The notes under the pieces were generated by a model, which was given only the letters and a program-made list of their open reading frames with translations, made no database searches and was not told where the DNA came from. Shown one piece after another: positions 754-57,868 of a stretch of DNA of 64,000 nucleotides. How positions within the stretch are numbered: the first letter of the stretch is position 1; each line of letters opens with the position of its first letter. A program made the translations under genes and the position numbers. Source of the DNA: an uncultured Spirochaetota bacterium (lineage in GTDB: Bacteria; Spirochaetota; Brevinematia; Brevinematales; JAOACQ01); the NCBI GenBank assembly GCA_963783575.1, contig CAWAOD010000011.1, forward strand, positions 512,001 to 576,000, in the 5' to 3' direction.

Positions 754-903
754 TTTTACTCTCCGTATATCTTTTATTTCTCCCTGTCAAGTTCATTGGC
801 TCTGTTGAATGTCCATTTGTTTTATCTTTGCTGCTTTAGTTATTACATTAATGGCTTAACCTGCGAACGGGCTTGTCTCCATATTATTCAACCCATATAA
901 AGA

Positions 904-16209: not shown

Positions 16210-16220
16210 GGAAAAAAATA

Positions 16221-19612: not shown

Positions 19613-19679
19613 AATCCAATTTAAAATATAAAAGTTATTATCAGAAAGTTTATATTGTAATAAAAATTTTGAGGGTATT

Positions 19680-25799: not shown

Positions 25800-25825
25800 A
25801 TAATTACTCCGGATATTTCGAATTT

Positions 25826-27249: not shown

Positions 27250-27262
27250 AATATTCTCTCCA

Positions 27263-31544: not shown

Positions 31545-31565
31545 TTAGCGATAAGAATTTTTTTT

Positions 31566-37394: not shown

Positions 37395-37497
37395 CGGGAA
37401 GGCTTCGCTTATTGGATACGGAAACAATGATTGTTATAAATAGTGCATTATTTGTAATATTAGTGAATATTTATTATAATTTACCCTTAATAAAAGG

Positions 37498-37938: not shown

Positions 37939-37986
37939 TAATTTAGTTTCCTTTCCTCCAATGGTTTTGATAATAAAATAATTGGG

Positions 37987-39387
37987 TTGATTACTTCTAT
38001 GAAAAACAGTTCATTTGATGGAAAATCAATATGGATATCTACAATAAAATTAAGTTTACCGATGTTATTGTCAAATGTATTAACTACATTTTATACAATA
38101 ATTGATACATATTTTATTTCTTTAATCGATAAAAAATCGACGGCTTATATAAGTGCCGTATCAATCATTAACCCGGTGTTTTTTATTTTTATCGCTTTAA
38201 GCAGCGGTTTATTTATAGGAATAAGTTCTTTAATAGCCAGAAGTTACGGCGAGGGCGATGAGAAGAAAGAAGCAAGCGGATTAATATCGGGACTGACCAT
38301 TTCAATCATTATTTCAATCATTACACTTTTATTCGGTTATATTTTTTTAAAAGATTTGGTAAGGCTCTTTGCAGGAAAAGAATTGTCGGCAGTAGCAATC
38401 AAAAGCGCCGAGGAATTTTTATTTTATTTGCTTCCAGGGTATTGCCTGATGCTGATCGGGAGATCATTATTCGGCGTTTTACAGGGGAAAGGACAGAATT
38501 TTCATATTGCAATTGCCGTTTTAATTTCTAATATATTAAACTGCATATTGGACCCGGTATTCATATTTTATTTTAAGATGGGTGTCGGGGGCGCGGGTCT
38601 TGCGACAAGCCTATCAATACTATTTACTGCAATATATGTACTGACATTATTTGCATTTAATAAATTTAAAATATCATTTGGTATTAAATATCTGAATTTT
38701 CATACAATCAAGGAAATATTACAGATTGGGATAACTCAATCCATAGGCATCTTATCATTATCAGTTTCATTCATCATTGTAAATAAAATTGTCGGCTCTA
38801 TAGGTGAGACGGAAATGAATGCGTTTGGTCTATGCGGCAGGCTTGATCAATTAACATTTTTACCTATATTTGCGATTGCTTCATCAACAGTAACAATAAC
38901 CGGCTATTATTTCGGCAAAAAAAATTATAATATCATCAAAGAAATATTTATAAAGAATTCGATTCTTGGAATCCTTAGTATGCTGGCATTAATATTGATT
39001 TATATTATTTTTTCTCCTCAATTATTCGCTTTATTTTCCGACAATCAAACCGTAATAAATAAAGCTGTTTATCAGGCCCGGATAGTTTCATTAAGTTTCC
39101 TTGGGATAGCGCTGGAATCAATAGCAGTATCCACATTCCAGGGGATGAAATATCCCCCGCCGTCTTTTTTGCTTATAATAATCAGAATGTTTATTGTAAT
39201 CCTTCCGCTTTCTTATTTTTTTGTATTTTTTTTAAAATTAGGTATGAATGGAATATTTATTAGCTATATAATCGCTCATATCAACACAGGCATAATTTCC
39301 TGTATCTGGATTTATTATTATCTCAAGAAATATAACTTATGGAGAGAAACTGTTAAAGTTGAAAATCCGGCTCTGATCCGATTTTAA
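37987..39387 (+). CDS. MATE family efflux transporter
   Basis: About 12 TM segments; LSLPMLLSN...IIDTYFI, NCILDPVFIF, MGVGGAGLAT. The start may be the ATG at 37999. Confidence 0.9.
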   Translation: MITSMKNSSFDGKSIWISTIKLSLPMLLSNVLTTFYTIIDTYFISLIDKKSTAYISAVSIINPVFFIFIALSSGLFIGISSLIARSYGEGDEKKEASGLISGLTISIIISIITLLFGYIFLKDLVRLFAGKELSAVAIKSAEEFLFYLLPGYCLMLIGRSLFGVLQGKGQNFHIAIAVLISNILNCILDPVFIFYFKMGVGGAGLATSLSILFTAIYVLTLFAFNKFKISFGIKYLNFHTIKEILQIGITQSIGILSLSVSFIIVNKIVGSIGETEMNAFGLCGRLDQLTFLPIFAIASSTVTITGYYFGKKNYNIIKEIFIKNSILGILSMLALILIYIIFSPQLFALFSDNQTVINKAVYQARIVSLSFLGIALESIAVSTFQGMKYPPPSFLLIIIRMFIVILPLSYFFVFFLKLGMNGIFISYIIAHINTGIISCIWIYYYLKKYNLWRETVKVENPALIRF

Positions 39388-42112: not shown

Positions 42113-45100
42113 TTAAAATTCGCCTTCCACATATTTTGTTCCGGCTGGAGTTTCAGATGTTTTTTCTTTATGTGACCAGAGGATAGTTTCAATATATTCA
42201 GCCATATAAGAGACTGTAGGATCCTCAAAAATAACGTTATTGACCGGCAATTCAACTTGAAAATCCTTCCTCAGCCTTGAGATCAAACGGGCATTCATCA
42301 GGGAATCACCGCCTAACTCAAAAAAGTTGTCATAAATTCCGATGGGTTTTATGCCCAGAGTTTCTTCCCATATATTTATAATCGTTTTTTCCAGGTCATT
42401 TCGGGCGGGAGTATATTCTTTTTTCAGGTCTGGCCTGGAACCGAATGAAAGGGCTGAGTTTTCTGCGGTTGAATTATTAATTGAAAGATTAATGTCTGAA
42501 AGTATGATTTCATTCGGTTTAGATCCTGATATTACAACCTGCGGAGGTATCCCCCGGATCATAAGACGATCAAAAAGTTTTCCGGCGTTCTGTGGAATTT
42601 CGCGGCCGGTATTATCCCAATTTAACGTAATCCATTCGGTGCTGCTGAATTTATTGATTTCCCGGATAAATGAATCAAGCCAGGTATATAAAGATGAGTG
42701 AACCGGGGAATTTGAACTTCCGGTATACCCGGTAATAGCAGAGTTTACTGCGATGAAATCAGGGGGATTTTGTGAAACGGCAGTATTAAGATTATTAATC
42801 TCTTTTTTAACATTATTTATAAGACTATTAAAATCAATAATATTGAATGCGTTGAGTGAACTGATGGTTTGCTCCGCTAACAAAGCGGTTCCATACAGGA
42901 TACCGTCAACCCTGCCGGAAATCTCTGCCGCTTTTTTAAACACTTTTTCCATATCGCTTAATATTGTAAGATCTGCTTCTATAAAATCGATACCTGTAAT
43001 ATTTTTTAATTCGGCAGCATTTTCAGGAATAGTATAACCCGGGCGTTGAGTCATAATAATCTTGGCATTATACTTTTGAGCTAAATTCCGGGCAATCGAA
43101 ATTTCTATTTCATTGTGTGAATTTAGAAAAAGATAAGTGCCTTTTTCTTTCAATATACCGATATGATTAAATGGTTCTTCAAGCGTAACCGGTTCAAAAT
43201 CCTGAACCCAGCGTATATTCCTTCGATAAGCTGTTGCTTTATTTGCTTCTTCTATCATAATATCGGAAATAATGGTTTCCGCAAGACCTTCTGATTTGAT
43301 TTCTATTGCAGGATCTTCAGGGCTGATATCTATTAAACGGCATTTCAGATGCGGAAACAAAAGGGGAATAGTTTTCATTAAACCGATAACCGGCTGGAGG
43401 TTCAGATCGATCCGGTCATTAGAATTTATTTCAAATAGATTATTGAAGATCGAGGTAATCCTGATTTCTGATTTAATTTTACTTCCGGCTGTATAACTTG
43501 ATAATAAAAGAAGGTTTTGAAAATCGCTTATTCCCTCATCGGACTTCTGAAGTCCCCAAAGATATAAAATATTATCAATAGGTTTTTCCCGGTTCTGTAT
43601 TTCTTTAAATAATGTTAAATAATCTTCGGGGTTATCTGTGGATATAATGAACTGACCGCCATTGATCTTTTTATATCCTGAACCTCTTCGGATAATAATC
43701 AAATCCTGTCCCCGTTCCGATAAATTTCCGATTAATTTTTCACTAATTTCACTGTCATCAGTGAGAACCAGCCATGTGTTACCTTGCCGATAATTTTTCT
43801 TTAAAATGGGAACCATCGATTTTTTGAAAAAAGGCAGGTATATTTGTCCGGATAAATCCTGATAACCGGATGATGTTTTTTTTATTTGAGAAAGATCCGG
43901 ATAGATCCAGCATGGTTTTTTGTCGAAAGGGTAGGCCGGCAGCGATACCCTGCACCTGGATTCTTCCTTAAAATACTTGTCCCAATCAACAGTAACACCT
44001 GAGAGCCAGAGCTGCGACAAGGTTTGCTTTATGTGTAAAACCGGGCTAATATTTTCCTTTTCCTGAAGCATTGAATTCAATATGGTATGGTCTTTAGATA
44101 TCCCCGGATGCTGGCTGAGCAATGTTTTAAGAGTTCTACCCGGGCCAATTTCTAACAGAATCCAGTCGCTATTTTCCAGTAATATTCCGGAAGCATCATA
44201 AAACCTGACAGTATTCCGTAGATGATTGACCCAGTATTCCGGGTTTAAGGCATCGTCGCCCTTCATCCAGTCTCCGGTTAGAGTTGATACATAGGGAATA
44301 GTTGGTTTATTGAAACGGATTGTCTTTACTTTTTCTAAAAAAGCCGGAAGGATTTGGTCCAGCATTGAGGAATGGAATGCATGAGAAATACTGATCTTCC
44401 TGACGAAAATACCCTGGCCATCCAGATTTGTTTTTAGATTTGCGGTATTTTCTTTAGGTCCTGAAATGGCGCAAAGGGATTGACCGTTAACCGCTGCCAA
44501 TGATAAGCAACCGTTTAATAACGGAAGTATTTTCTCTTCTTCCAGAGAAACAAGCAGCATATCGCCTTCTGGAAGACTGTTAACAAGGCTTGCCATTGTT
44601 AATACAAGGTCGATGGTATCTTCTAAAGACATAACTCCGGCAAGACAGGCGGCTGTGTATTCTCCGATACTATGCCCGGTCATCGCTATTGGAATGATTC
44701 CCCATGATATCCAGAGCTTTGCAAGACTATACTCTATTATAAATATTGAAGGCTGTGAATATAACGCCGTATTTAATATTTCCATGGCTTTTTCAATATC
44801 ACCGGACTCGGGGTAAATAAATGATTTCAAATCTATCCCGGAAAACTTTGTCACGATAGTAAAACACTCATCCATTGTCTCCTTAAAAAAGGGCTCCGAT
44901 TCATACAACTCCTTCCCCATATTAACATACTGCGAGCCCTGCCCCGGAAATAAAAAGACAGTTTCTCTTCCTGTTTTCTCCTCAATTTTCCTGTATATTT
45001 TTGGAGAAGTAATATCACTCAGCGCATTCCTGGCTTCCTGTGCGTCCTTGCAGATAAATGAAAGACGGTGGCTGAAGGTTTTGCGTCCTGCGGCAAGTGT

Positions 45101-46588
45101 GAAGGAAGCATCCGGAAGGATTGAAGCTTTATCTGAACTGAAATAAACCGACATCTCCCTGGCTTTATTGACCAATGCCGTTTCAGATTTTGCAGATAGA
45201 TTGATTATATAATATTTAGAATTACCGGAATCTTTAGATTTTTCAGTAAACGGGGCTTCCTGCAAAATTACATGGGCATTTGTCCCTCCGATACCGAAAG
45301 AACTGACCCCGGCACGCCTTGGCGAGCCGATTGCAGGCCCTTGCGAATCCTTGGTTTTCCAGTCAACAGTAGTGGTATTGACGTAAAACGGGCTGTTTTT
45401 AAAATCGATCTTTGGGTTAGGAGTTTCAAAGTTCAGGCTGGCTGGAATCTTTTGGTACTTTAATGAAAGAACTGTTTTTACTAAACCTGCGACACCGGCC
45501 GCCGCGTCCAGATGCCCGATATTGGTTTTTACGGAACCGATCGCACATGAGTTTGGTTTGACATTGCCGGTATTAAAAGCCTTAGTAAGTGCGGCTATCT
45601 CAATAGGGTCGCCGATAGCCGTTCCGGTACCATGAGCTTCAATGTATGATATTGACTCGGGCTTCAAATTAGCCAGAGTTATTGCCTCGTAGATTACGGA
45701 AGCCTGTCTTTCGAGGCTGGGAGCAGTATATCCCGCTTTTAGAGAACCGTCATTATTGATTGCCGAACCTTTGATTATTGCATATATCTGATCATTGCCA
45801 TCCAGCGCTTCGGATAAAAGCTTCAGCACTACAATTCCAGCTCCGTTGCCGATTACTGTCCCCTGGGCTTTTGCATCAAAAGCACGGCAGCGGCCGTCAG
45901 GAGAAAGAACAATACCTTCGTTATAGAGGTATCCTGATTTTTGCGGAATCCTGAGGGAAACTCCTCCCGCAAGGGCCATATCGCATTCTCCAAGCCGAAT
46001 GGCCTGGCAGGCCGTATGTACTGCAACTAATGATGTTGAACAGGCTGTTTGTATTGTTAAGCTAGGGCCTTTCAGATTTAGTTTATATGAAATCCTTGTC
46101 GCAAGAAAATCTTTGTCGCTAGCAACCATTATATGATACCCGCCTCCTTCTTCCATAAGGTTCCTGTGAGACTGAAGATTATTATATAAATAAGTGTTCA
46201 TTCCTGTACCGGCATAAACTCCAATCCTGCCCCGGTAAATTTCGGGATTGTACCCTGAGTCTTCAAGAGCCTTCCAGGCTTGTTCCAAAAACAGTCTTTG
46301 CTGAGGATCCACAAAGGAGGCTTCACGCGGGCTATAATCAAAAAACGGCGCATCGAAATTTTCGATGTTGTCAATTATGCCGCTTGATCTTACATACCGC
46401 GGATTATTGTATATTTCAGAACTGATTCCGGAGGCTTTTAATTCATCATCGGTAAATGTAGAGATACAGTCCCTTCCCGCTGCAAGGTTTTTCCAGAAGA
46501 TTTCCGCATTTTCAGATTTTGGGAAACAGCAAGATAAACCAACGATTGCTATATCGTTCGGATTGATTTCTTCAATATATTTTTTCAT
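42113..46588 (-). CDS. Type I PKS module KS-AT-(degenerate KR)-ACP
   Basis: KS motifs DPQQR, QTACSTS, HGTGT and KTNIGHL; AT motifs FPGQGSQ, GHSIGE and HAFHS (malonyl type); the KR-like region lacks GGxGxxG; ACP motif GGDSL; C-terminus YVEGEF. Start likely ATG 46588 (the track starts at TTG 46663). Confidence 0.92.
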   Translation of the reverse strand: MKKYIEEINPNDIAIVGLSCCFPKSENAEIFWKNLAAGRDCISTFTDDELKASGISSEIYNNPRYVRSSGIIDNIENFDAPFFDYSPREASFVDPQQRLFLEQAWKALEDSGYNPEIYRGRIGVYAGTGMNTYLYNNLQSHRNLMEEGGGYHIMVASDKDFLATRISYKLNLKGPSLTIQTACSTSLVAVHTACQAIRLGECDMALAGGVSLRIPQKSGYLYNEGIVLSPDGRCRAFDAKAQGTVIGNGAGIVVLKLLSEALDGNDQIYAIIKGSAINNDGSLKAGYTAPSLERQASVIYEAITLANLKPESISYIEAHGTGTAIGDPIEIAALTKAFNTGNVKPNSCAIGSVKTNIGHLDAAAGVAGLVKTVLSLKYQKIPASLNFETPNPKIDFKNSPFYVNTTTVDWKTKDSQGPAIGSPRRAGVSSFGIGGTNAHVILQEAPFTEKSKDSGNSKYYIINLSAKSETALVNKAREMSVYFSSDKASILPDASFTLAAGRKTFSHRLSFICKDAQEARNALSDITSPKIYRKIEEKTGRETVFLFPGQGSQYVNMGKELYESEPFFKETMDECFTIVTKFSGIDLKSFIYPESGDIEKAMEILNTALYSQPSIFIIEYSLAKLWISWGIIPIAMTGHSIGEYTAACLAGVMSLEDTIDLVLTMASLVNSLPEGDMLLVSLEEEKILPLLNGCLSLAAVNGQSLCAISGPKENTANLKTNLDGQGIFVRKISISHAFHSSMLDQILPAFLEKVKTIRFNKPTIPYVSTLTGDWMKGDDALNPEYWVNHLRNTVRFYDASGILLENSDWILLEIGPGRTLKTLLSQHPGISKDHTILNSMLQEKENISPVLHIKQTLSQLWLSGVTVDWDKYFKEESRCRVSLPAYPFDKKPCWIYPDLSQIKKTSSGYQDLSGQIYLPFFKKSMVPILKKNYRQGNTWLVLTDDSEISEKLIGNLSERGQDLIIIRRGSGYKKINGGQFIISTDNPEDYLTLFKEIQNREKPIDNILYLWGLQKSDEGISDFQNLLLLSSYTAGSKIKSEIRITSIFNNLFEINSNDRIDLNLQPVIGLMKTIPLLFPHLKCRLIDISPEDPAIEIKSEGLAETIISDIMIEEANKATAYRRNIRWVQDFEPVTLEEPFNHIGILKEKGTYLFLNSHNEIEISIARNLAQKYNAKIIMTQRPGYTIPENAAELKNITGIDFIEADLTILSDMEKVFKKAAEISGRVDGILYGTALLAEQTISSLNAFNIIDFNSLINNVKKEINNLNTAVSQNPPDFIAVNSAITGYTGSSNSPVHSSLYTWLDSFIREINKFSSTEWITLNWDNTGREIPQNAGKLFDRLMIRGIPPQVVISGSKPNEIILSDINLSINNSTAENSALSFGSRPDLKKEYTPARNDLEKTIINIWEETLGIKPIGIYDNFFELGGDSLMNARLISRLRKDFQVELPVNNVIFEDPTVSYMAEYIETILWSHKEKTSETPAGTKYVEGEF

Positions 46589-46697
46589 ATATTTACCATC
46601 CAATTTTCTTATTCGATATAAAGAGGAAGCCTGTTTGATTGTCAATTCCTCAATTTTAATCAAGAAAGAATTATATCTGGATCAAACGGCATGTTTG

Positions 46698-49600
46698 TTA
46701 AAAATCAAGACGGCTCTTTTTTCTCAAATCCCTCTGGGAATCTATTTGAGAAATTTTATTTTTCCTGGCCTCCACATTTTCTTCATCGAGAGTTTTTCCT
46801 GCATATGATGTATTTTGCGAAAGGTAAACCGCCAGAGAAGAAATTGTCGGATATTGAAACATCTCGACTATGCTGATGGGTTTTTCGGGAAATTCCGGTT
46901 CTAACTTTGTATGCATCTGTACCATAAGCATAGAGTTTCCGCCAAGCTCAAAAAAATTATCATTAACACCGATCTTATCAAGCTTAAGTGCATCCTGCCA
47001 GATAAGTGCGATCTTTTGTTCCATATGGCTTTTTGGTGCAACATAAACGCTTTCCAGTTCCGGCCTGATATAGTCCGGCACCGGCAGTGTTTTCCGGTCT
47101 ATCTTTCCATTTGGTGTTTTTGGAAATTCTTTTAAAAACACGAAATAAGAAGGGATCATATATTCAGGAAGTTTCTCTATAAGATAATGCCGCAGACCGC
47201 TTGTAGTAACCCCTGGATTTGAGCAGATGCAATATGCGATTAGCCTTTTGTCCTGAGGTTTATCCTCACGGACTATGACTATCGACTCTTTTATCGATTC
47301 ATGCTTTGAAAGCACGCTTTCAATTTCTCCAAGTTCTATCCGAAATCCTCGGATCTTCACCTGAAAATCGCTGCGTGATAAGAATTCAATATTGCCATCC
47401 GGCAGGTATCTGGCAAGATCTCCTGTTTTATATATTCTTGATTCATTATCATTAATAAAAGGATTTTTAATAAACCGTTCATCCGTTAATTCTTTCCTGT
47501 TGTAATATCCGCGGGCAACTCCATCCCCGCCGATGTAAAGATCTCCGGTTACTCCAACCGGTACCGGATTAAACCTGCTGTCCAGGATATACATTTGGGT
47601 ATTGTCAATCGGTTTTCCGATAGGGATTGGATACCGCACTTCTTCAATTTTGTAAATACTTGACCAGACTGTGGTTTCAGTAGGGCCGTACATATTCCAG
47701 ACTTCACCTGAACATTGCACGAGCTTTTCTGCAAGCTCCGGTGGAAAAGCCTCTCCGCCGCAGAGAATTTTCAAAGTTTTGCTGCCCTTCCAGCCGTTAT
47801 CCAGTAGAAGTCTCCAGACAGAAGGTGTTGCCTGCATAACTGTCACGTTGTTTTTATCGATTTCTTCAGCAAGGGCTTTTCCATCAGTAATAGTTTTCTG
47901 GTTCATAAGAATAACCTTAGCCCCTGTTGTAAGAGGCAGGAAGATTTCAAGGCCAGCGATATCGAATGAAATGGTTGTGACTGACAATAAGGTATCTTCC
48001 TCTATTAGACCGGGATTCTTCCGCATTGAGTTAAGAAAATTTACTATTGCGCGGTGAGGAATCTGAACGCCTTTCGGCTTTCCTGTTGAACCGGAAGTAT
48101 ATATCATATAAGCCAGGTTATGAAGGCTAACTTTTATATCCGGATTCAGTGAACTTTCTTTATTAATGTCTTCATTATCTTTATCCAGGCAGACCGGCTT
48201 GATAAAAGGGAAAGAAAAATAGTGCAGGAATTTTTCCTCGGTGATGGAAGGAATAGCGCCATTCTGCGAAATATCTTCAAGAATCAATGCGATTCTGTCT
48301 TTCGGATAAATGGGGTCAAGCGGCAAATAATAGCCTCCGGCCTTTAATATCCCTAATAATGCTGCGATAAGATTTAGCGAGCGTTCAAGGCAGACCGGCA
48401 CTACCGATTCTTCCTTAACACCAATCCGCTTCAGATAATGTGCGATACGGTTTGCTCTTTGGTTAAGTTCGCTGTATGTAATGGATTCTCCTTCAAAAAG
48501 GATTGCTATCGCGTCCGGTCTTTTATCTGCCTGTGCTTCGAAAAGTTTGAACAACGGCTTGTTCGGGTATTCTGCTTTTGTAGAATTCCATTCCCGCAAG
48601 AGTTGATCTTTTTTCGAATCGGGAAGAAATTGCATTGATGTTAACGGGTTTTTCATATCCCGGCAGACAACATCAAGTAATGTGATAAACTCAGTGCTCA
48701 TTCGCTGTATTGTATCTTTTGTGAAAAGACCGGTATTATACTGGAATGAAAAAGCAAATCGATTTTCAATGTCTGCTGCCAGAAGGGTCAGATCAAATTG
48801 AGATGATTGGCATCCAAGCGGAAGAAGCCTGACTTTTAGTCCCGAAATATCTGTATCTATAGGCATTTCGTTCAATGAAAACCCTGATAAACCTGCAAGT
48901 TCCGGGTTCGGTGATTTCTGGTATGAAAACATAATTTGAAAAATCGGCGAGCGGCTTAAATCACGGGCCGACTGGAGCTTGTCCACAATAAGTTTAAAAG
49001 GATAATATTGGTTTTCAAATACTCTAAGTACATTGGTCCTTACAGTTTCTAGTAAATTCCGGAAGCTTTCGCTGCCTTCAAACCGAGTCCTGATAGGTAT
49101 TGGGTTTATGAAATAACCGCTAATCGGGAAAAACTGCGCGCTTTTACGGCTTGCGCTGGGCGTACCGACAATAATATCCATCTGTCCGGTATAGCGGTAT
49201 AAAAAAACATAAAAAACCGACAGCAAAAATACAAAAGGCGTGCAATTGTATTGACCGCATAACCGTCTGATTTCATCACTCAATGGCTTTCCTGTTTCTG
49301 TAAATACCGAATCTCCTTTAAATGTCTGAACGGGAGGTCGCGGCAAGTCCGTATTTATGCTCACAGGTTGAATATCTCCGCTTAATTCTTTCTTCCAGAA
49401 TTCTTCCGCCGGCTGATTTTTTTCAAGGTATTCCCGTTGCCATTCTATAAAATGATAATATGATCCGCTTTCTTTTATTTCTCCTGCTGTTCCGGTTTTT
49501 TTTATCCTTGAGTAATACCCGCCAAGGTCTGAAGCTAAATAAGACAGCGACCAGAAATCGGTAATAATATGGTGGAACACTAACAACAGCAGATAATCCC

Positions 49601-52076
49601 CGGTGTTCTGCTTTCCGATGAAAACTCTCCATAAGGGTAATGTTTCCAGATCGAAAGGTTCGTTAGCTTTTTGGATCAACAATTCTTTGCAGGCTGATTC
49701 GCTTAAATTCATAAGATCAAGTTTTTTCATTTCAAAAACAAATTCTTTTTCAATTTTTTGCAGTACATTGCCGTCTTTCATGATAAACCTTGTCCTGAGA
49801 GCAGGATGCATTCGTGTCAAGGCGGTAAAAGCTTTTTCCAGGGCATTGCAGTCAAGTGGTTCGATCATTTTAAAAGCATATGATAAATTATACGCGGAAT
49901 TTGCCGGCGACATCTTCTGGATGAACCAGAGTGCCTGTTGACCCTGAGACAAAGGATATTCATCCGGTATAACTTTATCTGCGCTGGAACGAATGACTTC
50001 AGCGATATTTTCCATGCGGTCCAGAATAAGCCCGCTCATTTTTTGTATGCTGATTCCTTCAAGAATTTCAGCCATAGAAATATTAACCCTTAACGAAACC
50101 TCGATTAAATGAGTCAGATCAATAGTCATCAGCGAATCAAGACCATAAACCGCCAGATTTTCCAGGATATCGATTTCATCCTCACGTCTCTTCAGGATTT
50201 TTGAAATTTTCTTCCTGAGATACATCGAAATAATATTCTGTTTGTCGGCTTTCTGACTGACCAGTTTTAATGTTGATAAAATGAAATCATCTACCTCAGG
50301 TGATTCAGCTTTAGTATTAGTTTCTATAATTTCAGGCTGATTTTGGTTCATTTCTTCAATAATACTTTTGCCGATAATCTGCAGATCATCTTCCAGGAAT
50401 TTCTTTTTGCAAAGCTGCCTCTGGATTTTACCGCTGGAGGTCTTGGGTATGCTCATAAAGCGGATAAAAACGATGGTATAAAGCTGTATTTCAAATTGTT
50501 CCGAAACCGCTTTTCTCGCAGCATCTACGATTTCTTTTAAATCTTGCTTCGCGAAATCACGCTTTATCTCAAACACTCCTGCCAGCTTTTCTTCGCCCTC
50601 AGCCTCAATTGAAAAAGCCGCGGAACTTCCGGGAACAAAACCAGGATGGCTTTTTTCAATAACGTATTCAATATCCTGAGGGTAGAAATTTCTTCCTCGG
50701 ATAATTATCAAATCTTTAATCCGGCCAGAAATATACAGTTCACCGTTCCTTAAGAAGCCAAGGTCGCCGGTCCGTAAAAACGGGCCTTCTCCGTCAGATA
50801 AAACCGCTCCGAATGTCTTTGTAGTTTGTTCTTCCTGTTTCCAGTAACCGCCGGCCACGCTCTTACTTGCTGTCCAGACTTCACCGATTTCCGAATCGCC
50901 GCATTCCGTCAGTTTCTCCGGATCTACGATTTTTACTTTTACATCTTTAAAAACCTTGCCGGAACTGACTAAAGTCTTGCTGTTATCACCTGTAGAAATT
51001 TCTACCAGATTTCTGCCGAGTTTATCTGCGTCAATATCGATAGAAAGATGTAGTTCAAGATAGTTTTTACCAGTAACTATTAGTGTTCCTTCAGCCAGGC
51101 CGTGACATGGGTGAAACGCTTCCTTTCTGAATCCGTATTCCTTGAATGTGTCATAAAACTTAAGCATTGTATCTTCGCGGACCGGTTCTGCCCCGTTAAA
51201 TGCAACTTCCCAGGATGAAAGATCAAGTTGTTTTTTTTCTTCTTCCGTGATCTTTTGAACGCAAAGTTCATAGGCAAAATTCGGACCCCCGCTGGTTGTG
51301 GCTTTGTAGTCGCTAACCGCTTTAAGCCAGGTAAAAGGTTTCTGTAAAAATGAGAACGGCGACATTAATGTTACGGGAAAGCCTCCGTATATTGGCTCAA
51401 GAATTCCTCCGACAAGACCCATATCATGATAAGGAGGCAGCCAGACAACACCACGGCTTTGGTTATTTAGCCCGAAATTATTATGAATCGTTTCAAGGTT
51501 ATGTATGACATTTTCATAGGTTATCATTACACCTTTCGGGTTGGAAGTCGATCCGGAAGTATATTGCAGATAAGCCAGTTCATTCTGACGGACGTTTACA
51601 GGTTTATAATTATTAATCGAATCATTGGGAATAGCTTCAAAATCAATCCATTCAATGTTCTTTAATGCCGGTTTTGTTTCAAATAATTTATCCATTTTCA
51701 TTAATATGCTTTGTACGGTCAATACAATAGCTGCACCGGCGTCCTGAAGCATGGTTTCGATTCTTATGTCAGCCCGGTTGATTTTTGGCGGGTACGACGG
51801 CACCGGGACCATACCGGCGTATAAACATGCGAAAAATCCTGTAATATAATCAAGTCCAGGCTGGAAGAAAAGCAGGATCCGGTCGTTTCTTTTACCGATC
51901 ATCTGAAGGTATCCGGCGGTATTTCTGACCCGCTTGTCAAACTCCGCGTAAGTATATATTAATGGAACTTCCGAAGCATCGGTTATGAAAGTGTATGCCG
52001 TCTTGTCCGGGTCACTTAAAGCAAGATTTTTTAAAATATCCGGAATGGATAATTGCTTTTGATTATCTTGTTTCAC
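46698..52076 (-). CDS. FAAL-ACP-C-A-PCP lipo-initiating NRPS; A domain predicted to load glycine
   Basis: FAAL motifs YLQYTSGST.PKG, WLPPYHDMGL, HGLAEGT, LRTGDLG and PKTSSGK; ACP GLDSL; C domain HHIITD; A domain YTSGSTGKPKG, FDIAGLE and NMYGPTETTVWS (code read by eye DILQLGMVWK, close to the Gly code); PCP GGNSM. Confidence 0.93.
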   Translation of the reverse strand: MKQDNQKQLSIPDILKNLALSDPDKTAYTFITDASEVPLIYTYAEFDKRVRNTAGYLQMIGKRNDRILLFFQPGLDYITGFFACLYAGMVPVPSYPPKINRADIRIETMLQDAGAAIVLTVQSILMKMDKLFETKPALKNIEWIDFEAIPNDSINNYKPVNVRQNELAYLQYTSGSTSNPKGVMITYENVIHNLETIHNNFGLNNQSRGVVWLPPYHDMGLVGGILEPIYGGFPVTLMSPFSFLQKPFTWLKAVSDYKATTSGGPNFAYELCVQKITEEEKKQLDLSSWEVAFNGAEPVREDTMLKFYDTFKEYGFRKEAFHPCHGLAEGTLIVTGKNYLELHLSIDIDADKLGRNLVEISTGDNSKTLVSSGKVFKDVKVKIVDPEKLTECGDSEIGEVWTASKSVAGGYWKQEEQTTKTFGAVLSDGEGPFLRTGDLGFLRNGELYISGRIKDLIIIRGRNFYPQDIEYVIEKSHPGFVPGSSAAFSIEAEGEEKLAGVFEIKRDFAKQDLKEIVDAARKAVSEQFEIQLYTIVFIRFMSIPKTSSGKIQRQLCKKKFLEDDLQIIGKSIIEEMNQNQPEIIETNTKAESPEVDDFILSTLKLVSQKADKQNIISMYLRKKISKILKRREDEIDILENLAVYGLDSLMTIDLTHLIEVSLRVNISMAEILEGISIQKMSGLILDRMENIAEVIRSSADKVIPDEYPLSQGQQALWFIQKMSPANSAYNLSYAFKMIEPLDCNALEKAFTALTRMHPALRTRFIMKDGNVLQKIEKEFVFEMKKLDLMNLSESACKELLIQKANEPFDLETLPLWRVFIGKQNTGDYLLLLVFHHIITDFWSLSYLASDLGGYYSRIKKTGTAGEIKESGSYYHFIEWQREYLEKNQPAEEFWKKELSGDIQPVSINTDLPRPPVQTFKGDSVFTETGKPLSDEIRRLCGQYNCTPFVFLLSVFYVFLYRYTGQMDIIVGTPSASRKSAQFFPISGYFINPIPIRTRFEGSESFRNLLETVRTNVLRVFENQYYPFKLIVDKLQSARDLSRSPIFQIMFSYQKSPNPELAGLSGFSLNEMPIDTDISGLKVRLLPLGCQSSQFDLTLLAADIENRFAFSFQYNTGLFTKDTIQRMSTEFITLLDVVCRDMKNPLTSMQFLPDSKKDQLLREWNSTKAEYPNKPLFKLFEAQADKRPDAIAILFEGESITYSELNQRANRIAHYLKRIGVKEESVVPVCLERSLNLIAALLGILKAGGYYLPLDPIYPKDRIALILEDISQNGAIPSITEEKFLHYFSFPFIKPVCLDKDNEDINKESSLNPDIKVSLHNLAYMIYTSGSTGKPKGVQIPHRAIVNFLNSMRKNPGLIEEDTLLSVTTISFDIAGLEIFLPLTTGAKVILMNQKTITDGKALAEEIDKNNVTVMQATPSVWRLLLDNGWKGSKTLKILCGGEAFPPELAEKLVQCSGEVWNMYGPTETTVWSSIYKIEEVRYPIPIGKPIDNTQMYILDSRFNPVPVGVTGDLYIGGDGVARGYYNRKELTDERFIKNPFINDNESRIYKTGDLARYLPDGNIEFLSRSDFQVKIRGFRIELGEIESVLSKHESIKESIVIVREDKPQDKRLIAYCICSNPGVTTSGLRHYLIEKLPEYMIPSYFVFLKEFPKTPNGKIDRKTLPVPDYIRPELESVYVAPKSHMEQKIALIWQDALKLDKIGVNDNFFELGGNSMLMVQMHTKLEPEFPEKPISIVEMFQYPTISSLAVYLSQNTSYAGKTLDEENVEARKNKISQIDSQRDLRKKSRLDF

Positions 52077-52120: not shown

Positions 52121-53590
52121 TCAAACGGCGTCAATTATTATCTTTAAAATTGACAGGTAATTTCCGGCAATGCTTTCAATAGTAGACTGCCGGTAATAAT
52201 TACTGCTGTAAACCCATTGTAGGAAAAGTTGTTCATGGCTTATAAAGCAAATACATTCAAGCGGAAAAAAGTAATCTTCATCGGGTCCGGCGCGCATACC
52301 TGGATTTTCTTTAGCCACCCTTATATTTGGAACTTCATAATCTACACGGCCAAGGTAGTTGAATAACAATTTACAGCCTTTGAATTCCATCATTAATTTT
52401 TTAATCCGTATTTTATTTTCATCACCAAACCTGCACAATAATGCATAGCCTAATCCGGAATTGGGCGCTTTTTTAAACTGCTCATCTATAAATCTTACCT
52501 TTTCGAATATCGAATCATTTTGTATTGAATTCATATCCGACTTCTTTACAATAAGCGACCGGCTTGTGGCAAGAAAACCGACTGTCCTGCTAAGATCCAT
52601 ATCTTTTGTAAAAGGATAACCGATGCGCCCCGAATCGGTAGCTTCAAAATAAACCCAGTCCTCATTCATCCGCTGGCAGACGGATTCTACTAATGGCACC
52701 ATTAGCAAATTATCAAAAGAAGTTTGATAATAAGCCGGAATATCCTTGAAGAGTTTTTGAGTTTCATTTTCAGAAAGAGCCATAGTATACTTTTTAAGAG
52801 AACCTTCGGTAATTTTTGCCGAACCCGGAAAATCAGATTTCAAATTTAAAGTTTTATCCCAGGGTAGTTTTGACCAATATTCAACTTCAGATTCTAACTC
52901 CTTCGAATAGCAATACGAATTGAGAGCTGCAACGTAATCGGAAAAAGGAGTGATTTCTCCCGGAAGATAAATCTTGCCATCCTGCAGGATTTGCTGATAA
53001 GCGGTTAAAAAATCATTCAGCAGAATTGTAAGAGAGGTTATATCGCAGAGCAGGTGGTGCGCTACTATTAAAAAGCGGTTTGGCCGGCCTTTACCCATAT
53101 TAAAATAAGCTATCCGGATCAGCGGTCCGTTAGTTATATCAAGTGAATTTTGTATCTTTTCGGCAGCCGCTTCAATGGCATTTTTTTGATCGTCTTCTTT
53201 GATATCAGAGTAATCGAATGCTTCAAAAGGAACATCTTCAATGGAATTTTTTATATACTGTTTCCATATTCCATTTTCCTTGACAAACCTGGCTTTCAAT
53301 ACTTCATGACAATCGAGCAGATATGAAAAAACCTGTTTTATTAGAGACGGCTCTAAAGGAAGATCTGTTTCCAATAATCTGCACATATTATAGCGCGCTG
53401 GATTTATCCTGTGTATGATTGAATCTAAAAAAGTAAACTGGTTGTAGCTCAGAGGGATTGATCTTTCTATTCCTGTTTTCTCTTTTTCTGCAACTATAAC
53501 TTTTTTCATAGAATCAAGTTTTTTAATATCAGCCAATTTGGCTAATTTTGCAATAGTTGGGTTTTTTGACAAATCACCGGGATTAATCAT
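52121..53590 (-). CDS. PCP C-terminal helix plus an epimerisation-like condensation domain; in frame with the upstream NRPS beyond one TAG
   Basis: Starts with PCP-type residues (NPTIAKLA). Contains HHLLCD, DLSRTVGF, PNSGLGY and FNYLG. The EGHGRE motif is replaced by TDSGRI. Confidence 0.82.
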   Translation of the reverse strand: MINPGDLSKNPTIAKLAKLADIKKLDSMKKVIVAEKEKTGIERSIPLSYNQFTFLDSIIHRINPARYNMCRLLETDLPLEPSLIKQVFSYLLDCHEVLKARFVKENGIWKQYIKNSIEDVPFEAFDYSDIKEDDQKNAIEAAAEKIQNSLDITNGPLIRIAYFNMGKGRPNRFLIVAHHLLCDITSLTILLNDFLTAYQQILQDGKIYLPGEITPFSDYVAALNSYCYSKELESEVEYWSKLPWDKTLNLKSDFPGSAKITEGSLKKYTMALSENETQKLFKDIPAYYQTSFDNLLMVPLVESVCQRMNEDWVYFEATDSGRIGYPFTKDMDLSRTVGFLATSRSLIVKKSDMNSIQNDSIFEKVRFIDEQFKKAPNSGLGYALLCRFGDENKIRIKKLMMEFKGCKLLFNYLGRVDYEVPNIRVAKENPGMRAGPDEDYFFPLECICFISHEQLFLQWVYSSNYYRQSTIESIAGNYLSILKIIIDAV

Positions 53591-53596
53591 TAATCC

Positions 53597-56500
53597 CTAA
53601 TGATGTGCCATATCAATTACTCTCAAGCCTGTAAGTGAATCACCTCCAATCTGAAAGAAATCATCATAAATTCCAATTTGCTCAAGTTTCATAACAGTCT
53701 GCCAGATGGATACGAGTTTCTTTTCTGTATCGTTTCTTGGAGCAGTATATTTAGATTCCCTGCTTAAGCCCGTACCACCCCTGGATTTTAATTTTTTTCT
53801 ATCAATTTTACCTGTAAGAGTTAAAGGCAAAGAATTCATTTTAATAAATGAAACCGGGATCATATATTCAGGCAGGCGAACTTTGAGAAAATCGACAATT
53901 TCACCCAGCTTAATTTCTACATTATTTTCCGGAACGAAATATGTTATTAACTGTTTTTCACCCTGATTTTTATCCTCAGCCATTACCACGGCCTCTTTTA
54001 TACCAGGAAACCCAAGCATAACAGTTTCTATCTCCGATGATTCGATCCTTATTCCTTTGATTTTTAATTGCAGGTCCCTACGGCCAAGATGTTCCAGACA
54101 ACCGTCCGTACGAAGCCGGCCAATGTCTCCGGTAAAATACATTCTTTCCGGACCGCCGTCCGGATTTTTCTTGAAAGATTTTTCCGTCTGGTCATCCAGT
54201 TCCCAATATCCCGGAGATAGGTAAGCGCTTTTTATAACTATCTCGCCCGGCCTGTTGTAATGTACCGGATTGCCGGCTTCGTCAACCAGCAGAATTTCGG
54301 TATCCGTAACTTTGTAACCTACTGGAACAAGGTTCCCGATAAGTTTTGTGTTTTTATCAATGGGATATTGCCTTATAACATTCAATTCCGTTGCACCTAA
54401 ACCGTTCACCAGAACGCAACTATCCGCGAAATATTTTTTATATGAATCCACGTCAAAAGACGAGACTGGTTCTCCTCCAAAATCAATTATCCTGAGCTTT
54501 GGAAAGGATGACACATCCTTAGATGACATATCTTCAATCGAAGTAACAAAGTGCCTGAAAACCGTCGGGACAGAATGGTATATTGTAATATCATTATCAT
54601 TCAGCCAACCGGCGAGTTTTTGCGGGCCGTTTTCTTTAATGTTATAAAGACACAACGTAGCTCCGTTCGATAATGCAGCAAAAACATCCATCATAGCAGC
54701 GCTGAAACTGAATGACGGGATCAGTGAAAGCTTGTCATCCCTGCCGATATGCAGCCCGTTTGTATAGTTCATAATAAAATGCAGGACATTCCTGTGTTTT
54801 TGCATTACGCCTTTAGGATGTCCGGTTGAGCCGGAAGTGTACATTATATATGCCAGATCTTCAGGCCCGGAAAAGTCTTCCTTGCTTTCGTCAGTCTTGT
54901 CATCTTTATAAATTTCTTTAATATTCAAAATCTTAATATTTTTATTTACCGGGTTTCTGATTTCGTATGCCAATTCCTCATTTTCATCATCAGTTATAAT
55001 CAAATGCGTGTTAGTGTCATCCAGGATATAACTCAAACGTTCTTTCGGATAGTCGGGATCTAACGTGACAAAAGAATTGCCGCTTTTAAGCACTCCCATA
55101 ATTCCGGCTACAATCCTAATGCTGTGGCCTATCAGGAGCGCGATTATGCTAGGTTTATAATTATCCATCTTTTTCGTATCAATGGATTGTATGAATAAAG
55201 ATTCTTTGGGTATTTTATCCTCTATTGACGAGCACAAAGGGCAATGGGGGTCTTTTTCGATTTCGATTTCCTCTATAAATCGCCCGGTAAATCCCTTTTC
55301 CCAGTCAAAACCGTTCTTTTTGCAGGTTTCGATAAAATGCCTGCTGAAAGGGTAGGTGACAATCTTATAACCTCTTGTCTGGGAAAGTCTGTCCGATCCC
55401 TGGTTATTAAAGAAGAAATATTTATTGTAGGAAGGGTTTTCAAATCCCAGGACTATTTTCAATGCTTCATTTACAGCGAACCCTGTGCTCAGAAATAGTG
55501 CCGGAGAAGAAACACAATTGGCTACTTTATTCCAGCCGCTGTTTTCTTTCCGGAGTTCCATGACAGTGTCCAGTTTTTTTATATCATAACAGCAGTGGAA
55601 ACAGGGAGTGTAAGGCGAATGGAATATAACGGCATAAGAGCTCCTTTCGATCATTGACGATAGAACATGCGGAATGCGCTTTGCCACAGCGTATTCCGAC
55701 AATGCAAATTTCGCTTCTATACTGTCAACATTATCAAATATTATTGCCGAGTTTCCCACCAAGTCGGAAACAGTATTTTTGTCTATTTTTTCTTTTCTTA
55801 CAATTACTTTTACATTTGGGTTTATTCTTTGAACCGATATGGCCGCAGATTCGGCTTTATTCATACCGATCCTGGATTCGTCATGAAGAACCTGCCGGTT
55901 TAGGTTGGACAGTTCAACATTATCGAAATCACAGATTATGATTGTACCGACTCCCAATAATGCTAGCTGCATAATAACAGGCGACCCTGATCCGCCGGCT
56001 CCTGCCGCAAATACTGTCAGGCCTTTCAATTTTTCCTGTGATTCTATTCCCCATTGATCCAGGATAAGCTGCCTGGTATACCGTATTTTTTCTTTTTTTG
56101 AAAGCCCGGGTAAATTATCAATACTGTTTTTTATTATATAACTTAAACGACCGGACAAAGTCTTTAATTCAAGGTATGTTAATTTCTCATCATCCATTTC
56201 TATTGCAATTTGCTCTGGATTTTCAAGTACCTGTATTTCAAATCTTCCGATGATTGACTGCTCAATCTCTTCCTTCCGGAATGGAATAAATTGGTGATCG
56301 ATTATCACCGGTTTCGGTTCGATCGGGATTAATTCTGGGAGTTCGTTTATAAAAAGTTCCGGTTGATCCGCCAGCCGGGCCGTTAGAATTTCAAAATGAT
56401 TTACCAGCCAATTTACGGTATTTTCAGAATATAAATCAGCTTTAAAAGAGAAATCCATCTGGATCCCAAGCTCGTGTTCAATCGCAAGCAAGGTGATGTC

Positions 56501-57868
56501 GAATTTGGAATTGATATTTTGGGCCCCGATGATATCCCGGTTGTATGGTTCTATTTCAAGCCCGGGGAGTTTCCAATTATACCTGGCGCTGTACATATTG
56601 AATAAAACTTGAAATATAGGAGTTTTATTCCGCTGTCGCGGCGGTTTTAGTTCCTCAACCAATAAATCAAAAGGGATTTCCTGGTTTGATAAAGCCCCGG
56701 ATGAAGATTCCTTAACAGATTCAAGAAGATCTGTAAAGCGGATATTATCGCTTATTCCCGTACGTATAACGACCGTATTGAAAAATAACCCGATTAACGG
56801 TTCGAGATCACCTCTGTTTCTGCCTGCAATAGGTGACCCAACAACAATATCCCTGATCCCGGAGTATTGATGAAGCAATACCTTAAAAATAGATAAAATT
56901 GTAACATAAAGCGAATAACCGTATTTTTTACTGACCGATTTTAATTTAGCTGTGATATTACCGGTAATCATATAGTTTTTACGGATACTTTTATAGGATA
57001 AGACTTCAGGACGATTAAAATCGCCGTAAATTTCCGGTATATTCTCAATATTATTCAGTTTGTCTTTCCAATAGGATAACTGGAGTTCCTTTAATCCGCC
57101 GTTAAGCCTGTCATTCTGCCATTTGGCATAATCGGCATATTGAATTGACAATTCAGGCAGTACCGCGGTTTCACCGGTAACATATTCCGTATAAAAAGCT
57201 ATTAATTCCTGAACGAAAATATACAACGATTGATTGTCGCATATGATATGATGAAATCCAAGCACCAGAACATGTTCATTTTCTGATACTTGAAGCAGTC
57301 TGGCACGAATCAGCGGGCCTTCGGCAAGGTTAAAAGGTGAGCTTAATTCTTCATTGTATTCGGCTATTACTTTTAAGTCTTTTTCGTTTTCTGATAATTT
57401 AATTATGTCGATAAGAGGCATATCTATTTTTAAATCCCGCGATATGATTTGATTCACTTCGCCATTGTTATTTATATAATTGGTTCGAAGTACTTCATGC
57501 CTTTGAATGATCCGGTTCATACTTTTATGGAGAGCTTTATAATTGAGTTTTCCTCTAAGACGGAACGCTATCGGAATATTGAAAGCACTGCTTTTTTCAT
57601 CCATCTGGCTGTGAAGCCATAGCCATTTTTGGCCGTAGGATACTGGAATATCTTCATTACGTGGGATTGGTTTTATTGGAGAAAAAAACGAGCTCTCCCC
57701 ATTCAGAGATTCAACAAAGCGGATGATTTCTTCCTTGTTATCTGTGATTTCTGCTTTAATTTCATCATTCAGGGCTCCGGCAGGTGCTTTATATTTAAGA
57801 GTTCCTTCTTCAACCCAGATTTGTATTCCTAGATTTTTCACCCTATATAATAAATTTACTATATTCAT
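53597..57868 (-). CDS. NRPS: TubC-type N-terminal docking domain, C, A interrupted by a ThiF/MoeB domain, and a truncated PCP
   Basis: N-terminus GIQIWVEEGTLKYKAPAGAL; C domain HHIICD; A1 LTYLEL; ThiF insert; A2 LKSG...LDPDYP; A3 YTSGSTGHPKG; TGD; KIDRK; PCP GGDSL followed by TAG. Confidence 0.9.
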   Translation of the reverse strand: MNIVNLLYRVKNLGIQIWVEEGTLKYKAPAGALNDEIKAEITDNKEEIIRFVESLNGESSFFSPIKPIPRNEDIPVSYGQKWLWLHSQMDEKSSAFNIPIAFRLRGKLNYKALHKSMNRIIQRHEVLRTNYINNNGEVNQIISRDLKIDMPLIDIIKLSENEKDLKVIAEYNEELSSPFNLAEGPLIRARLLQVSENEHVLVLGFHHIICDNQSLYIFVQELIAFYTEYVTGETAVLPELSIQYADYAKWQNDRLNGGLKELQLSYWKDKLNNIENIPEIYGDFNRPEVLSYKSIRKNYMITGNITAKLKSVSKKYGYSLYVTILSIFKVLLHQYSGIRDIVVGSPIAGRNRGDLEPLIGLFFNTVVIRTGISDNIRFTDLLESVKESSSGALSNQEIPFDLLVEELKPPRQRNKTPIFQVLFNMYSARYNWKLPGLEIEPYNRDIIGAQNINSKFDITLLAIEHELGIQMDFSFKADLYSENTVNWLVNHFEILTARLADQPELFINELPELIPIEPKPVIIDHQFIPFRKEEIEQSIIGRFEIQVLENPEQIAIEMDDEKLTYLELKTLSGRLSYIIKNSIDNLPGLSKKEKIRYTRQLILDQWGIESQEKLKGLTVFAAGAGGSGSPVIMQLALLGVGTIIICDFDNVELSNLNRQVLHDESRIGMNKAESAAISVQRINPNVKVIVRKEKIDKNTVSDLVGNSAIIFDNVDSIEAKFALSEYAVAKRIPHVLSSMIERSSYAVIFHSPYTPCFHCCYDIKKLDTVMELRKENSGWNKVANCVSSPALFLSTGFAVNEALKIVLGFENPSYNKYFFFNNQGSDRLSQTRGYKIVTYPFSRHFIETCKKNGFDWEKGFTGRFIEEIEIEKDPHCPLCSSIEDKIPKESLFIQSIDTKKMDNYKPSIIALLIGHSIRIVAGIMGVLKSGNSFVTLDPDYPKERLSYILDDTNTHLIITDDENEELAYEIRNPVNKNIKILNIKEIYKDDKTDESKEDFSGPEDLAYIMYTSGSTGHPKGVMQKHRNVLHFIMNYTNGLHIGRDDKLSLIPSFSFSAAMMDVFAALSNGATLCLYNIKENGPQKLAGWLNDNDITIYHSVPTVFRHFVTSIEDMSSKDVSSFPKLRIIDFGGEPVSSFDVDSYKKYFADSCVLVNGLGATELNVIRQYPIDKNTKLIGNLVPVGYKVTDTEILLVDEAGNPVHYNRPGEIVIKSAYLSPGYWELDDQTEKSFKKNPDGGPERMYFTGDIGRLRTDGCLEHLGRRDLQLKIKGIRIESSEIETVMLGFPGIKEAVVMAEDKNQGEKQLITYFVPENNVEIKLGEIVDFLKVRLPEYMIPVSFIKMNSLPLTLTGKIDRKKLKSRGGTGLSRESKYTAPRNDTEKKLVSIWQTVMKLEQIGIYDDFFQIGGDSLTGLRVIDMAHH

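Follow-up and report, generated by a model that had tools for sequence, protein, structure and literature searches.

A ThiF/MoeB-type adenylyltransferase domain nested between motifs A1 and A2 of a nonribosomal peptide synthetase adenylation domain

Introduction

What would a second adenylating enzyme do inside an adenylation domain that already activates a building block of its own? This question is raised by a nonribosomal peptide synthetase (NRPS) gene in a stretch of 64,000 nucleotides (hereafter the window; contig CAWAOD010000011.1, positions 512,001 to 576,000, assembly GCA_963783575.1) from an uncultured Spirochaetota bacterium. A first, sequence-only reading had claimed that a complete ThiF/MoeB (E1-like) adenylyltransferase is inserted in an adenylation (A) domain of this gene, between motifs A1 and A2, and had known of no characterised ThiF insert in such a domain. 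Our analysis showed that the feature is real, conserved and undescribed in the searchable literature, and that it adds to the interrupted A domains both an insert type and an insertion site that are new. The mechanism that we put forward for it is a reasoned proposal, not a result.

Interrupted A domains are the assembly lines' way of building tailoring into the loading enzyme. Insert types other than methyltransferases exist among them. In the accessible part of the review by Lundy, Mori and Garneau-Tsodikova (2020, PMC8341866), families 1-7 of interrupted A domains are distinguished, with TioS (A8-M-A9) and TioN (A2-M-A3) as examples, and the inserts listed are methyltransferases only, located at a2-a3, a6-a7 and a8-a9. 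Nowhere does PMC8341866 use ThiF, MoeB or a1-a2 as a term. Our literature search, which left subscription-only papers, MIBiG and antiSMASH-DB outside, found no description of ThiF in an NRPS A domain, and to this extent the architecture is undescribed.

Structure of the interrupted module

The module is encoded on the minus strand. Its parts, with residues numbered in the 1423-codon open reading frame (ORF), are the following:

53597..57868, minus strand: NRPS ORF, 1423 codons as called, with TubC_N, condensation (C) domain, interrupted A domain and the N-terminal part of a peptidyl carrier protein (PCP)
57716..57862, minus strand: TubC_N docking domain, residues 3-51 (PF18563, E = 1.8e-16)
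56339..57655, minus strand: C domain, residues 72-510 (PF00668, E = 2.3e-94), with HHIICD at 206-211
56129..56281, minus strand: N-terminal fragment of the A domain with motif A1, residues 530-580, LTYLEL at 563-568
55151..56128, minus strand: insert, residues 581-906, made up of a ThiF/MoeB-type domain (about 585-884) and a low-confidence linker (884-904)
53807..55150, minus strand: remainder of the A domain with motifs A2-A10, residues 907-1354
53519..53719, minus strand: PCP with a stop codon inside, Ser1411 in GGDSL
53597-53599, minus strand: in-frame TAG, codon 1424, 13 codons past the PCP Ser1411, splitting a gene of about 1915 codons
52121..53590, minus strand: ORF of 489 aa with the PCP remainder and the terminal C domain (PF00668, E = 2.7e-39), HHLLCD at 178

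The gene product is an elongation module of the order dock-C-A-PCP-C, with its A domain broken between A1 and A2. It had been taken for a protein of 1423 aa, which needs correction as a description of the whole product: the in-frame TAG shortens it, and the frame goes on into the 489-aa C-domain ORF.

Pfam placed ThiF (PF00899) at residues 597-824 (profile positions 1-221 of 238, E = 6.1e-53; 179.9 bits, cut-off 28.1), AMP-binding (PF00501) at residues 907-1222, with 47 as the first profile position matched, and AMP-binding_C at residues 1279-1354. This is the arrangement that the sequence-only reading had expected, PF00899 nested in a split PF00501. Motif A3 (YTSGSTGHPKG) lies at 1010-1020, A8 at 1262-1276, and the A10 lysine is K1354. 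The PP-binding match within the 1423-codon ORF covered residues 1384-1420 and profile positions 2-40 of 67, with 19.8 bits against a cut-off of 20.8.

We then located the break with a custom hidden Markov model (HMM) of the A domain, made from the N-termini of 35 uninterrupted A domains of the homologues and of the window's second NRPS. Positions 4-60 of this model fell on residues 530-580, a stretch that includes LTYLEL, although weakly (4.1 bits; E = 0.012 with six sequences searched), and positions 68-176 fell on residues 907-1022 with 101.8 bits. This puts the break into the loop that follows the A1 helix, and the insert comprises residues 581-906, that is 326 aa (window 55151-56128) rather than the roughly 290 aa first claimed. 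It takes the place of the short loop between the post-A1 helix and the strand leading to A2.

All motifs listed for the flank and the insert were found at their positions: LTYLEL at 563-568 (window 56165-56182), RYTRQ at 596-600, the GxGGxG nucleotide loop AGAGGSG at 622-628, DFDNVELSNLNRQ at 647-659, KAESA at 671-675, DNVD at 712-715, CFHC at 756-759 and CPLC at 876-879. The A domain also resumes as claimed, with IIALLIGHS at 908-916, VLKSG at 926-930 and LDPDYP at 936-941.

An AlphaFold2 model of residues 525-1375, based on an alignment of 22 rows, reached a mean predicted local distance difference test score (pLDDT) of 80.0 and a predicted template modelling score of 0.73. The A1 fragment has a pLDDT of 84-94 in the model, where it can be superposed on the N-terminal part of solved A cores; model residues 360-380 form the low-confidence linker. 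The core of a TycA variant (5n81_B) aligned with the model at Z 48.5 and a root mean square deviation of 2.1 over 393 of 395 residues (model range 7..740), and GrsA PheA (1amu_B) at Z 46.2 over 391 residues (model range 7..773). In the predicted structure the two pieces come together as a complete A core, and the ThiF domain forms an excursion from it. Pfam, the custom HMM and the model agree that an A domain complete in all else has a complete ThiF/MoeB E1-like domain nested between its A1 and A2. The module resembles known interrupted A domains in that a loop holds the complete fold of an auxiliary enzyme while the A core is still predicted to fold. It differs from them in that the insert is itself an adenylating enzyme, the second in the domain and from another superfamily, and a1-a2 is not among the sites described in the accessible part of the review.

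Catalytic residues and predicted dimer of the ThiF domain

The best sequence match to the insert among solved structures was E. coli MoeB (1jw9_B, E = 7.3e-27), followed by Uba4 and then ThiF. The insert covers residues 4-225 of the 249 of the MoeB chain, and free-standing homologues of about 300 aa align with it end to end, as is fitting for a complete and independent fold.

Twelve residues, R599, G623, G625, G626, D647, D649, N655, R658, Q659, K671, D712 and D715, are 99-100% conserved in 116 embedded copies from homologous NRPSs, whose identity to the window copy goes down to about 45%. They align with MoeB R14, G38, G40, G41, D62, D64, N70, R73, Q74, K86, D127 and D130, which we take, from the work on the MoeB-MoaD structure, to be its ATP- and Mg-site residues. 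The zinc-type cysteines C756, C759, C876 and C879 are present in 100% of the copies, and the MoeB counterparts C172 and C175 were aligned. Judged by these residues, the insert is a catalytically competent adenylyltransferase of the ThiF/MoeB type. With A3, A7, A8 and A10 present in the host A domain, both nucleotide sites appear intact by sequence, as had been claimed. C785, the cysteine in the region of the crossover loop, is retained in only 2% of the copies, which makes an E1 mechanism with a thioester or persulfide unlikely.

The insert and E. coli MoeB and ThiF (PDB 1jw9, 1zud) are alike in their ATP-site residues and in the Cys4 zinc site, and a MoeB-like homodimer is predicted for the insert. 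They are unlike in that the insert is covalently nested in an NRPS, has no ThiS/MoaD partner that could be found in its 89.85%-complete genome, and carries about 50 additional residues in its C-terminal half with conserved motifs of their own. This family-specific C-terminal extension has F841, F845, G853, W856 and E867 as conserved residues in the ThiF domains nested in A domains (ThiF-in-A) and is shared by the free-standing proteins of about 300 aa.

Structure prediction of two copies of the ThiF domain gave interaction scores (ipSAE) of 0.88, 0.89 and 0.90 in three runs, against 0.00 for the best control. The runs had at least 97% of contacts in common, and the pLDDT of the partner was at least 88. 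Of the proteins used to calibrate this tool, 20 of 30 solved as pairs of one chain and 1 of 23 solved as single chains came up to the mark. At the interface of the prediction, residues 595-600 (the RYTRQ motif) contact residues 653-654 of the other copy. A homodimer of the ThiF domain would make the whole module a dimer.

The predicted dimer is also what one would look for if the ThiF domain were a structural or regulatory insert, one that mainly dimerises the module or senses ATP and takes no part in product chemistry. Binding-only ThiF-like proteins are indeed known from azoline systems of the peptides that are synthesised ribosomally and modified post-translationally (RiPPs), according to the accessible text of PMC12596934 (section 3.6). 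We nevertheless regard such a role as quite improbable, because we would expect non-catalytic relatives to lose their ATP/Mg-site residues and zinc cysteines, and all 16 of these are kept nearly without exception down to the most distant copies. The C-terminal extension is conserved as well.

Distribution of ThiF-in-A modules

A word-indexed protein search with residues 530-930 as the query, in which 8000 candidates were scored, found 141 proteins at E <= 0.001. PF00899 and PF00501 occurred together in 119 of the 120 homologues listed; the other one, P0114, is a partial protein without PF00501. By their record titles, the homologues belong to Bacillota, Spirochaetota, Acidobacteriota, Aminicenantes and Omnitrophota, and are common in uncultured anaerobes. 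The same architecture is present in an isolate, Ruminiclostridium hungatei DSM 14427 (locus L003, 8384-14527), as an unbroken ORF of 2047 aa. Further related loci include four from Bacillota metagenome-assembled genomes (MAGs) and one from a Spirochaetota MAG (L001), whose copy is 83% identical.

We also ran an exhaustive HMMER search with the 301-aa ThiF region against 1.84 billion representatives of a library clustered at 50% identity, and found 107 proteins at E <= 1e-30. The best 63 of these 107 (E <= 2.3e-80) span the whole query, except for the N-truncated P0120, which has the last 246 residues; 61 of the 63 are proteins of at least 800 aa. Below them stand free-standing proteins of 286-315 aa, P0147, P0153 and P0160 among them, which align end to end.

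A metagenome scan for free-standing members gave three further NRPS-embedded copies (L014-L016). Eight other metagenome loci out of 80 were inspected and held ordinary ThiF genes of 247-282 aa. In five of the eight (L042, L044, L051, L078 and L083, with free-standing ThiF genes of 247-253 aa) an ORF of 90 aa follows directly. Each of the five is probably a sulfur-carrier pair without any relation to the NRPS clade.

This distribution bears on whether the nesting was made by a chimeric assembly or a mis-join. The source genome is a draft of 18 contigs, and the one public read run that we used provides no read support across the junctions: it contained 0.05 of the sampled words and gave short contigs, mostly less than 90% alike, that lie over neither junction nor the TAG, and is uninformative. 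Against an artefact, the order A1 fragment, ThiF, A2-A10 recurs in 49 proteins of the a1-a2 class from independent assemblies, it is unbroken in the R. hungatei isolate, and 63 representatives at E <= 2.3e-80 are found in a library clustered at 50% identity. In our view the independent assemblies refute a chimera, and the chance of one is negligible.

Phylogeny and insertion sites

Mapped by motifs, the 120 homologues have the ThiF domain at three positions. In the 116 domains that could be extracted whole, the site is A1-A2 in 47, A2-A3 in 16, A8-A10 in 47 and unclear in 6. Relatives of the insert thus occur at the classical a2-a3 and a8-a9 sites of interrupted A domains too.

A quick FastTree phylogeny of the 116 embedded domains with three free-standing outgroups, rooted on long branches, grouped the embedded copies as one clade with 99% local support. 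Read with the caution that such a tree calls for, it has the a1-a2 copies as a paraphyletic set at its base, the a2-a3 copies in a single nested clade (97%) and the a8-a9 copies in two or three nested groups.

In the long a8-a9 inserts, A1-like and A2-like fragments flank the ThiF domain like a transplanted a1-a2 unit. P0066 is an example: its residues 801-847 matched HMM positions 8-60, and its residues 1178-1258 matched positions 70-143. Such remnants fit an origin from the a1-a2 form, and on the sequence level they suggest that the long a8-a9 form was derived from it.

In-frame stop codon

Ten homologues read through the position of the TAG without a break. The closest relative, the 83%-identical Spirochaetota copy, has CAA (Gln) at this codon (L001 stretch about 10140-10240), and has a lesion of its own, a frameshift near codons 576-594 in the region of the A1/ThiF junction. 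A sense reading of TAG was ruled out, as TAG is also the stop codon of 3 other ORFs among the 37 that were checked in the window, which indicates an ordinary genetic code. Either the window copy is newly broken or the TAG base is an assembly error.

Search for a sulfur carrier

The canonical partners of MoeB and ThiF are small sulfur carriers, and the sequence-only reading had noted that none with a GG terminus was visible. This was borne out at the cluster and extended to six relatives' loci: no GG-ended ORF of 40-130 aa was found in the cluster or in the loci L001-L005 and L008. The single small GG-ended ORF of the window (17591-17719) lies far from the cluster, inside another gene. The source genome (4.9 Mb, 89.85% complete, 4.91% contaminated) gave 0 matches to PF02597 (ThiS/MoaD) at E <= 0.01, in a search whose control was positive in 12 of 14 reference genomes. 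It has one other PF00899 match, a weak one.

These results concern the possibility of a sulfur relay, in which the ThiF domain would adenylate a ThiS/MoaD-like carrier whose thiocarboxylate then gives sulfur to an NRPS intermediate as a thioacid or thioamide. The closest solved structures, MoeB, Uba4 and ThiF, would agree with it, and MoeB-like/ThiS-like pairs do work with AMP-ligases in the thioquinolobactin and pyridine-2,6-dithiocarboxylate (PDTC) pathways. The lack of a carrier match in the 89.85%-complete genome and at the cluster loci and the near-general loss of the loop cysteine argue against it, and no rhodanese or desulfurase turned up in the Pfam scans of the neighbours. We consider a sulfur relay very unlikely.

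Host specificity codes

The nine specificity positions of the host A domains were read from a motif-anchored alignment. The code of the window's A domain is SAMHDGGVI(K). Among the a1-a2 hosts, SAMHDGGVI or SAVHDGGVV, the codes of the window's clade, occur in 23 of 49, DAMHVGG.. in 21 and others in 5. The a2-a3 hosts have DPRHLA[IV]LA (13/16) or DARHLSLM[IT] (3/16). The a8-a9 hosts have DL[ST]K.GHIG (26/37), DAKD.G... (9/37) or other codes (2/37).

Codes of two of these classes resemble printed ones. The accessible part of PMC10548584 gives DAKDLGVV for Glu/Asp and DLTKVGHI for Asp in surfactin synthetase, and that of PMC12283262 gives DLTKVGHVGK for Asp/Asn and DPRHLALLAK for alpha-aminoadipate, to which the a2-a3 code DPRHLA[IV]LA is close. 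As a control set we read 21 non-host A domains of the same proteins, with P0063 and P0103 excluded as actual hosts; 13 had Gly-type DILQ codes, 5 had DSACVAEVA and 1 was of the Asp type. Codes like those for Asp, Glu or aminoadipate in most hosts point to a strong host bias to dicarboxylic amino acids. For the earlier suggestion of a tethered or small-molecule substrate, these codes lend indirect support across the family.

In the a2-a3 class, P0049, P0060 and P0078 among them, the next module has a Gly-type DILQ code in 12 of the 13 proteins with a second module. The pair classically prone to imide formation is an acidic residue with Gly after it.

Proposed function

The host bias is the main support for our best explanation, drawn by analogy, that the ThiF domain is a second adenylation site for the spare carboxylate of the building block; our confidence in it is evenly divided between right and wrong. 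The host A domain would load a dicarboxylic amino acid onto the PCP via one carboxylate, and the ThiF domain would spend a second ATP to adenylate the remaining free carboxylate of the tethered residue. A nucleophile close by, for example a nitrogen of the backbone or of a side chain, ammonia or an amine, would capture the acyl-AMP. This would yield a lactam, an imide or an amide, after which the terminal C domain would release the chain or hand it on. The ThiF domain would act as a MoeB-like homodimer in which the arginine of RYxRQ reaches the ATP site of the partner.

ThiF-like enzymes offer precedents for such carboxylate chemistry in PaaA, MccB, TcdA and OxzB (accessible text of PMC12596934; 10.1101/2020.06.11.147165). 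According to the first of these sources, PaaA adenylates a Glu side chain and MccB a C-terminal Asn, and intramolecular attack by nitrogen follows. Our proposal for the insert is drawn by analogy with these two enzymes (PDB 5ff5, 3h5n), whose adenylation domains match it at E = 1.5e-16 and 1.1e-12. The matches start at PaaA 101 and MccB 90. PaaA and MccB, which with GrcB represent the ThiF-like enzymes of RiPP pathways, act on ribosomal peptides via an N-terminal RiPP recognition element (RRE) or peptide clamp, whereas the insert is preceded by the A1 fragment and has no RRE equivalent. OxzB has a ThiF-like domain and carries out ATP-dependent cyclodehydration of a small N-acyl amino acid (accessible text of PMC12596934; 10.1101/2020.06.11.147165). 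OxzB differs from our module in being free-standing and fused to a nitroreductase, and its type has a partner N-acyltransferase. No nitroreductase family was found by Pfam in the window protein or the scanned neighbours.

The domain might instead load a building block in the manner of an E1 enzyme. It would then adenylate a separate free carboxylate, of a small acid or a peptide C-terminus, and pass it to the phosphopantetheine (Ppant) thiol of a PCP or else to some acceptor within the assembly line, so that the module handles two building blocks. Activation of C-terminal carboxylates is typical of ThiF and E1 enzymes, and an E1 adenylate is captured by a thiol, as stated in the accessible text of PMC12596934. 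Two carrier-domain motifs follow the A domain in the close relatives P0008, P0009 and P0011, and two PP-binding stretches were found by Pfam in L003 and L008, which would suit two building blocks. But the host A domain keeps A3, A7, A8 and A10 and hence is a loader itself, and the bias of the host codes to Asp, Glu and aminoadipate types would be left unexplained. Nor is there an RRE-like peptide-binding domain, PaaA and MccB matching by their adenylation parts only, and a precursor-like small ORF was not noticed. Loading of this kind is in our judgement unlikely.

Several points weigh against the spare-carboxylate proposal. It presupposes a Ppant arm that can reach the ThiF site. Since MoeB and ThiF dimers are already solved, the score of the predicted dimer speaks for likeness and not for binding, and it may stem from the model's memory of those structures. 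The specificity positions come from our alignment and not from a curated predictor, and no printed match was found for SAMHDGGVI or for the sister code DAMHVGGVT. An acidic substrate of the a1-a2 hosts would be extrapolated from the other two classes and the shared His278. In the window's clade (23 of the 49 a1-a2 rows) a Ser stands in place of the amine-binding Asp235, so that this clade may use a substrate that has no alpha-amino group or that is bound differently. The window code has Asp at position 299, and we suspect that the amino group of its substrate lies deeper in the pocket, as might be the case for an omega-amino acid or for an acidic residue that is iso-linked. Lastly, the window copy itself may be inactive, as the TAG truncates its PCP.

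A broader form of the spare-carboxylate proposal is possible but doubtful. It holds that ThiF-in-A modules are a widespread, undescribed class in anaerobes, obligate dimers through their E1 insert, which use the second ATP to cyclise or derivatise tethered acidic residues, and that the a1-a2 site is ancestral, with the a2-a3 and a8-a9 forms arising by relocation of the ThiF domain. Under this broader form, possible products would include N-acyl lactams, cyclic imides (most a2-a3 hosts precede a Gly-type module) and oxazolone-like rings.

Surrounding gene cluster

The genes next to the module in the window are the following:

46698..52076, minus strand: NRPS 2, with a fatty acyl-AMP ligase (FAAL)-like A domain, acyl carrier protein (ACP), C, A and PCP; A code DILQLGMVW, Gly type
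42113..46663, minus strand: polyketide synthase (PKS) module by Pfam, ketosynthase (KS), acyltransferase (AT), ketoreductase (KR) and ACP
39485..42094, minus strand: penicillin-amidase-family (N-terminal nucleophile, Ntn) hydrolase by Pfam
35241..39387, plus strand: second penicillin amidase (35241-37394), ORF of 146 aa and MatE efflux pump (37987-39387)

The order along the minus strand is therefore ThiF-NRPS, in-frame terminal C, FAAL-ACP-C-A(Gly type)-PCP, KS-AT-KR-ACP and amidase hydrolase. The MatE pump, the 146-aa ORF and the second amidase are convergent with these NRPS and PKS genes; the 146-aa ORF is without a Pfam match.

Parts of this cluster recur in relatives. L003 and L008 have MatE, a KS-ACP PKS, the amidase and a dock-C-A(ThiF)-PCP(-PCP)-C protein in synteny. 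L002 has the PKS, the amidase and the ThiF-NRPS, MatE being absent from the stretch compared. A penicillin-amidase homologue adjoins the ThiF-NRPS in all three. L004, from a Bacillota MAG, has MatE, a PKS and two ThiF modules; these are two dock-C-A(ThiF)-PCP proteins (8414-14191 and 16061-21208) with an AAT-family (acyl-CoA:6-APA acyltransferase-like) gene between them. A tblastn search of the window for neighbour genes of the relatives (an NAD_binding_2 protein, a 411-aa unknown and a stand-alone thioesterase) found no remnants.

Other features of the window

A phosphonate set at 4779-9405 comprises a phosphoenolpyruvate mutase-nucleotidyltransferase fusion, a thiamine diphosphate-dependent decarboxylase-like protein and a fusion of a nucleotidyltransferase with a class-V aminotransferase. 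On the flanks of this set lie sulfatase-family proteins (2510-4726 and 11103-13334) as well as a CDP-glycerol glycerophosphotransferase (9468-10619), and its probable role is to attach aminoethylphosphonate to a surface polymer. The window also has an rmlA/C/D-like set (24546-28132) that includes a dTDP-glucose dehydratase-like ORF (24546-25799, 417 aa), whose family matches are split into 10-121 and 195-402, which suggests an insertion of about 70 aa. At 29460-35198, an ORF of 694 aa without a Pfam match is followed by one of 1210 aa, with a weak KaiC-type ATPase match at residues 26-154 as its sole match.

Significance

As reviewed in October 2025, OxzB was the only validated ThiF-like enzyme outside RiPPs, and an involvement of such enzymes in NRPS was conjecture (PMC12596934, section 4). 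The ThiF-in-A family would answer whether ThiF-like enzymes act in NRPS pathways, which that review left open. If our proposal is true, these modules would represent a new on-line chemistry, the ATP-driven activation of a second carboxylate by an enzyme of the E1 superfamily, and possibly a new mode of NRPS dimerisation. As the cultured R. hungatei holds an unbroken copy, the question is directly testable.

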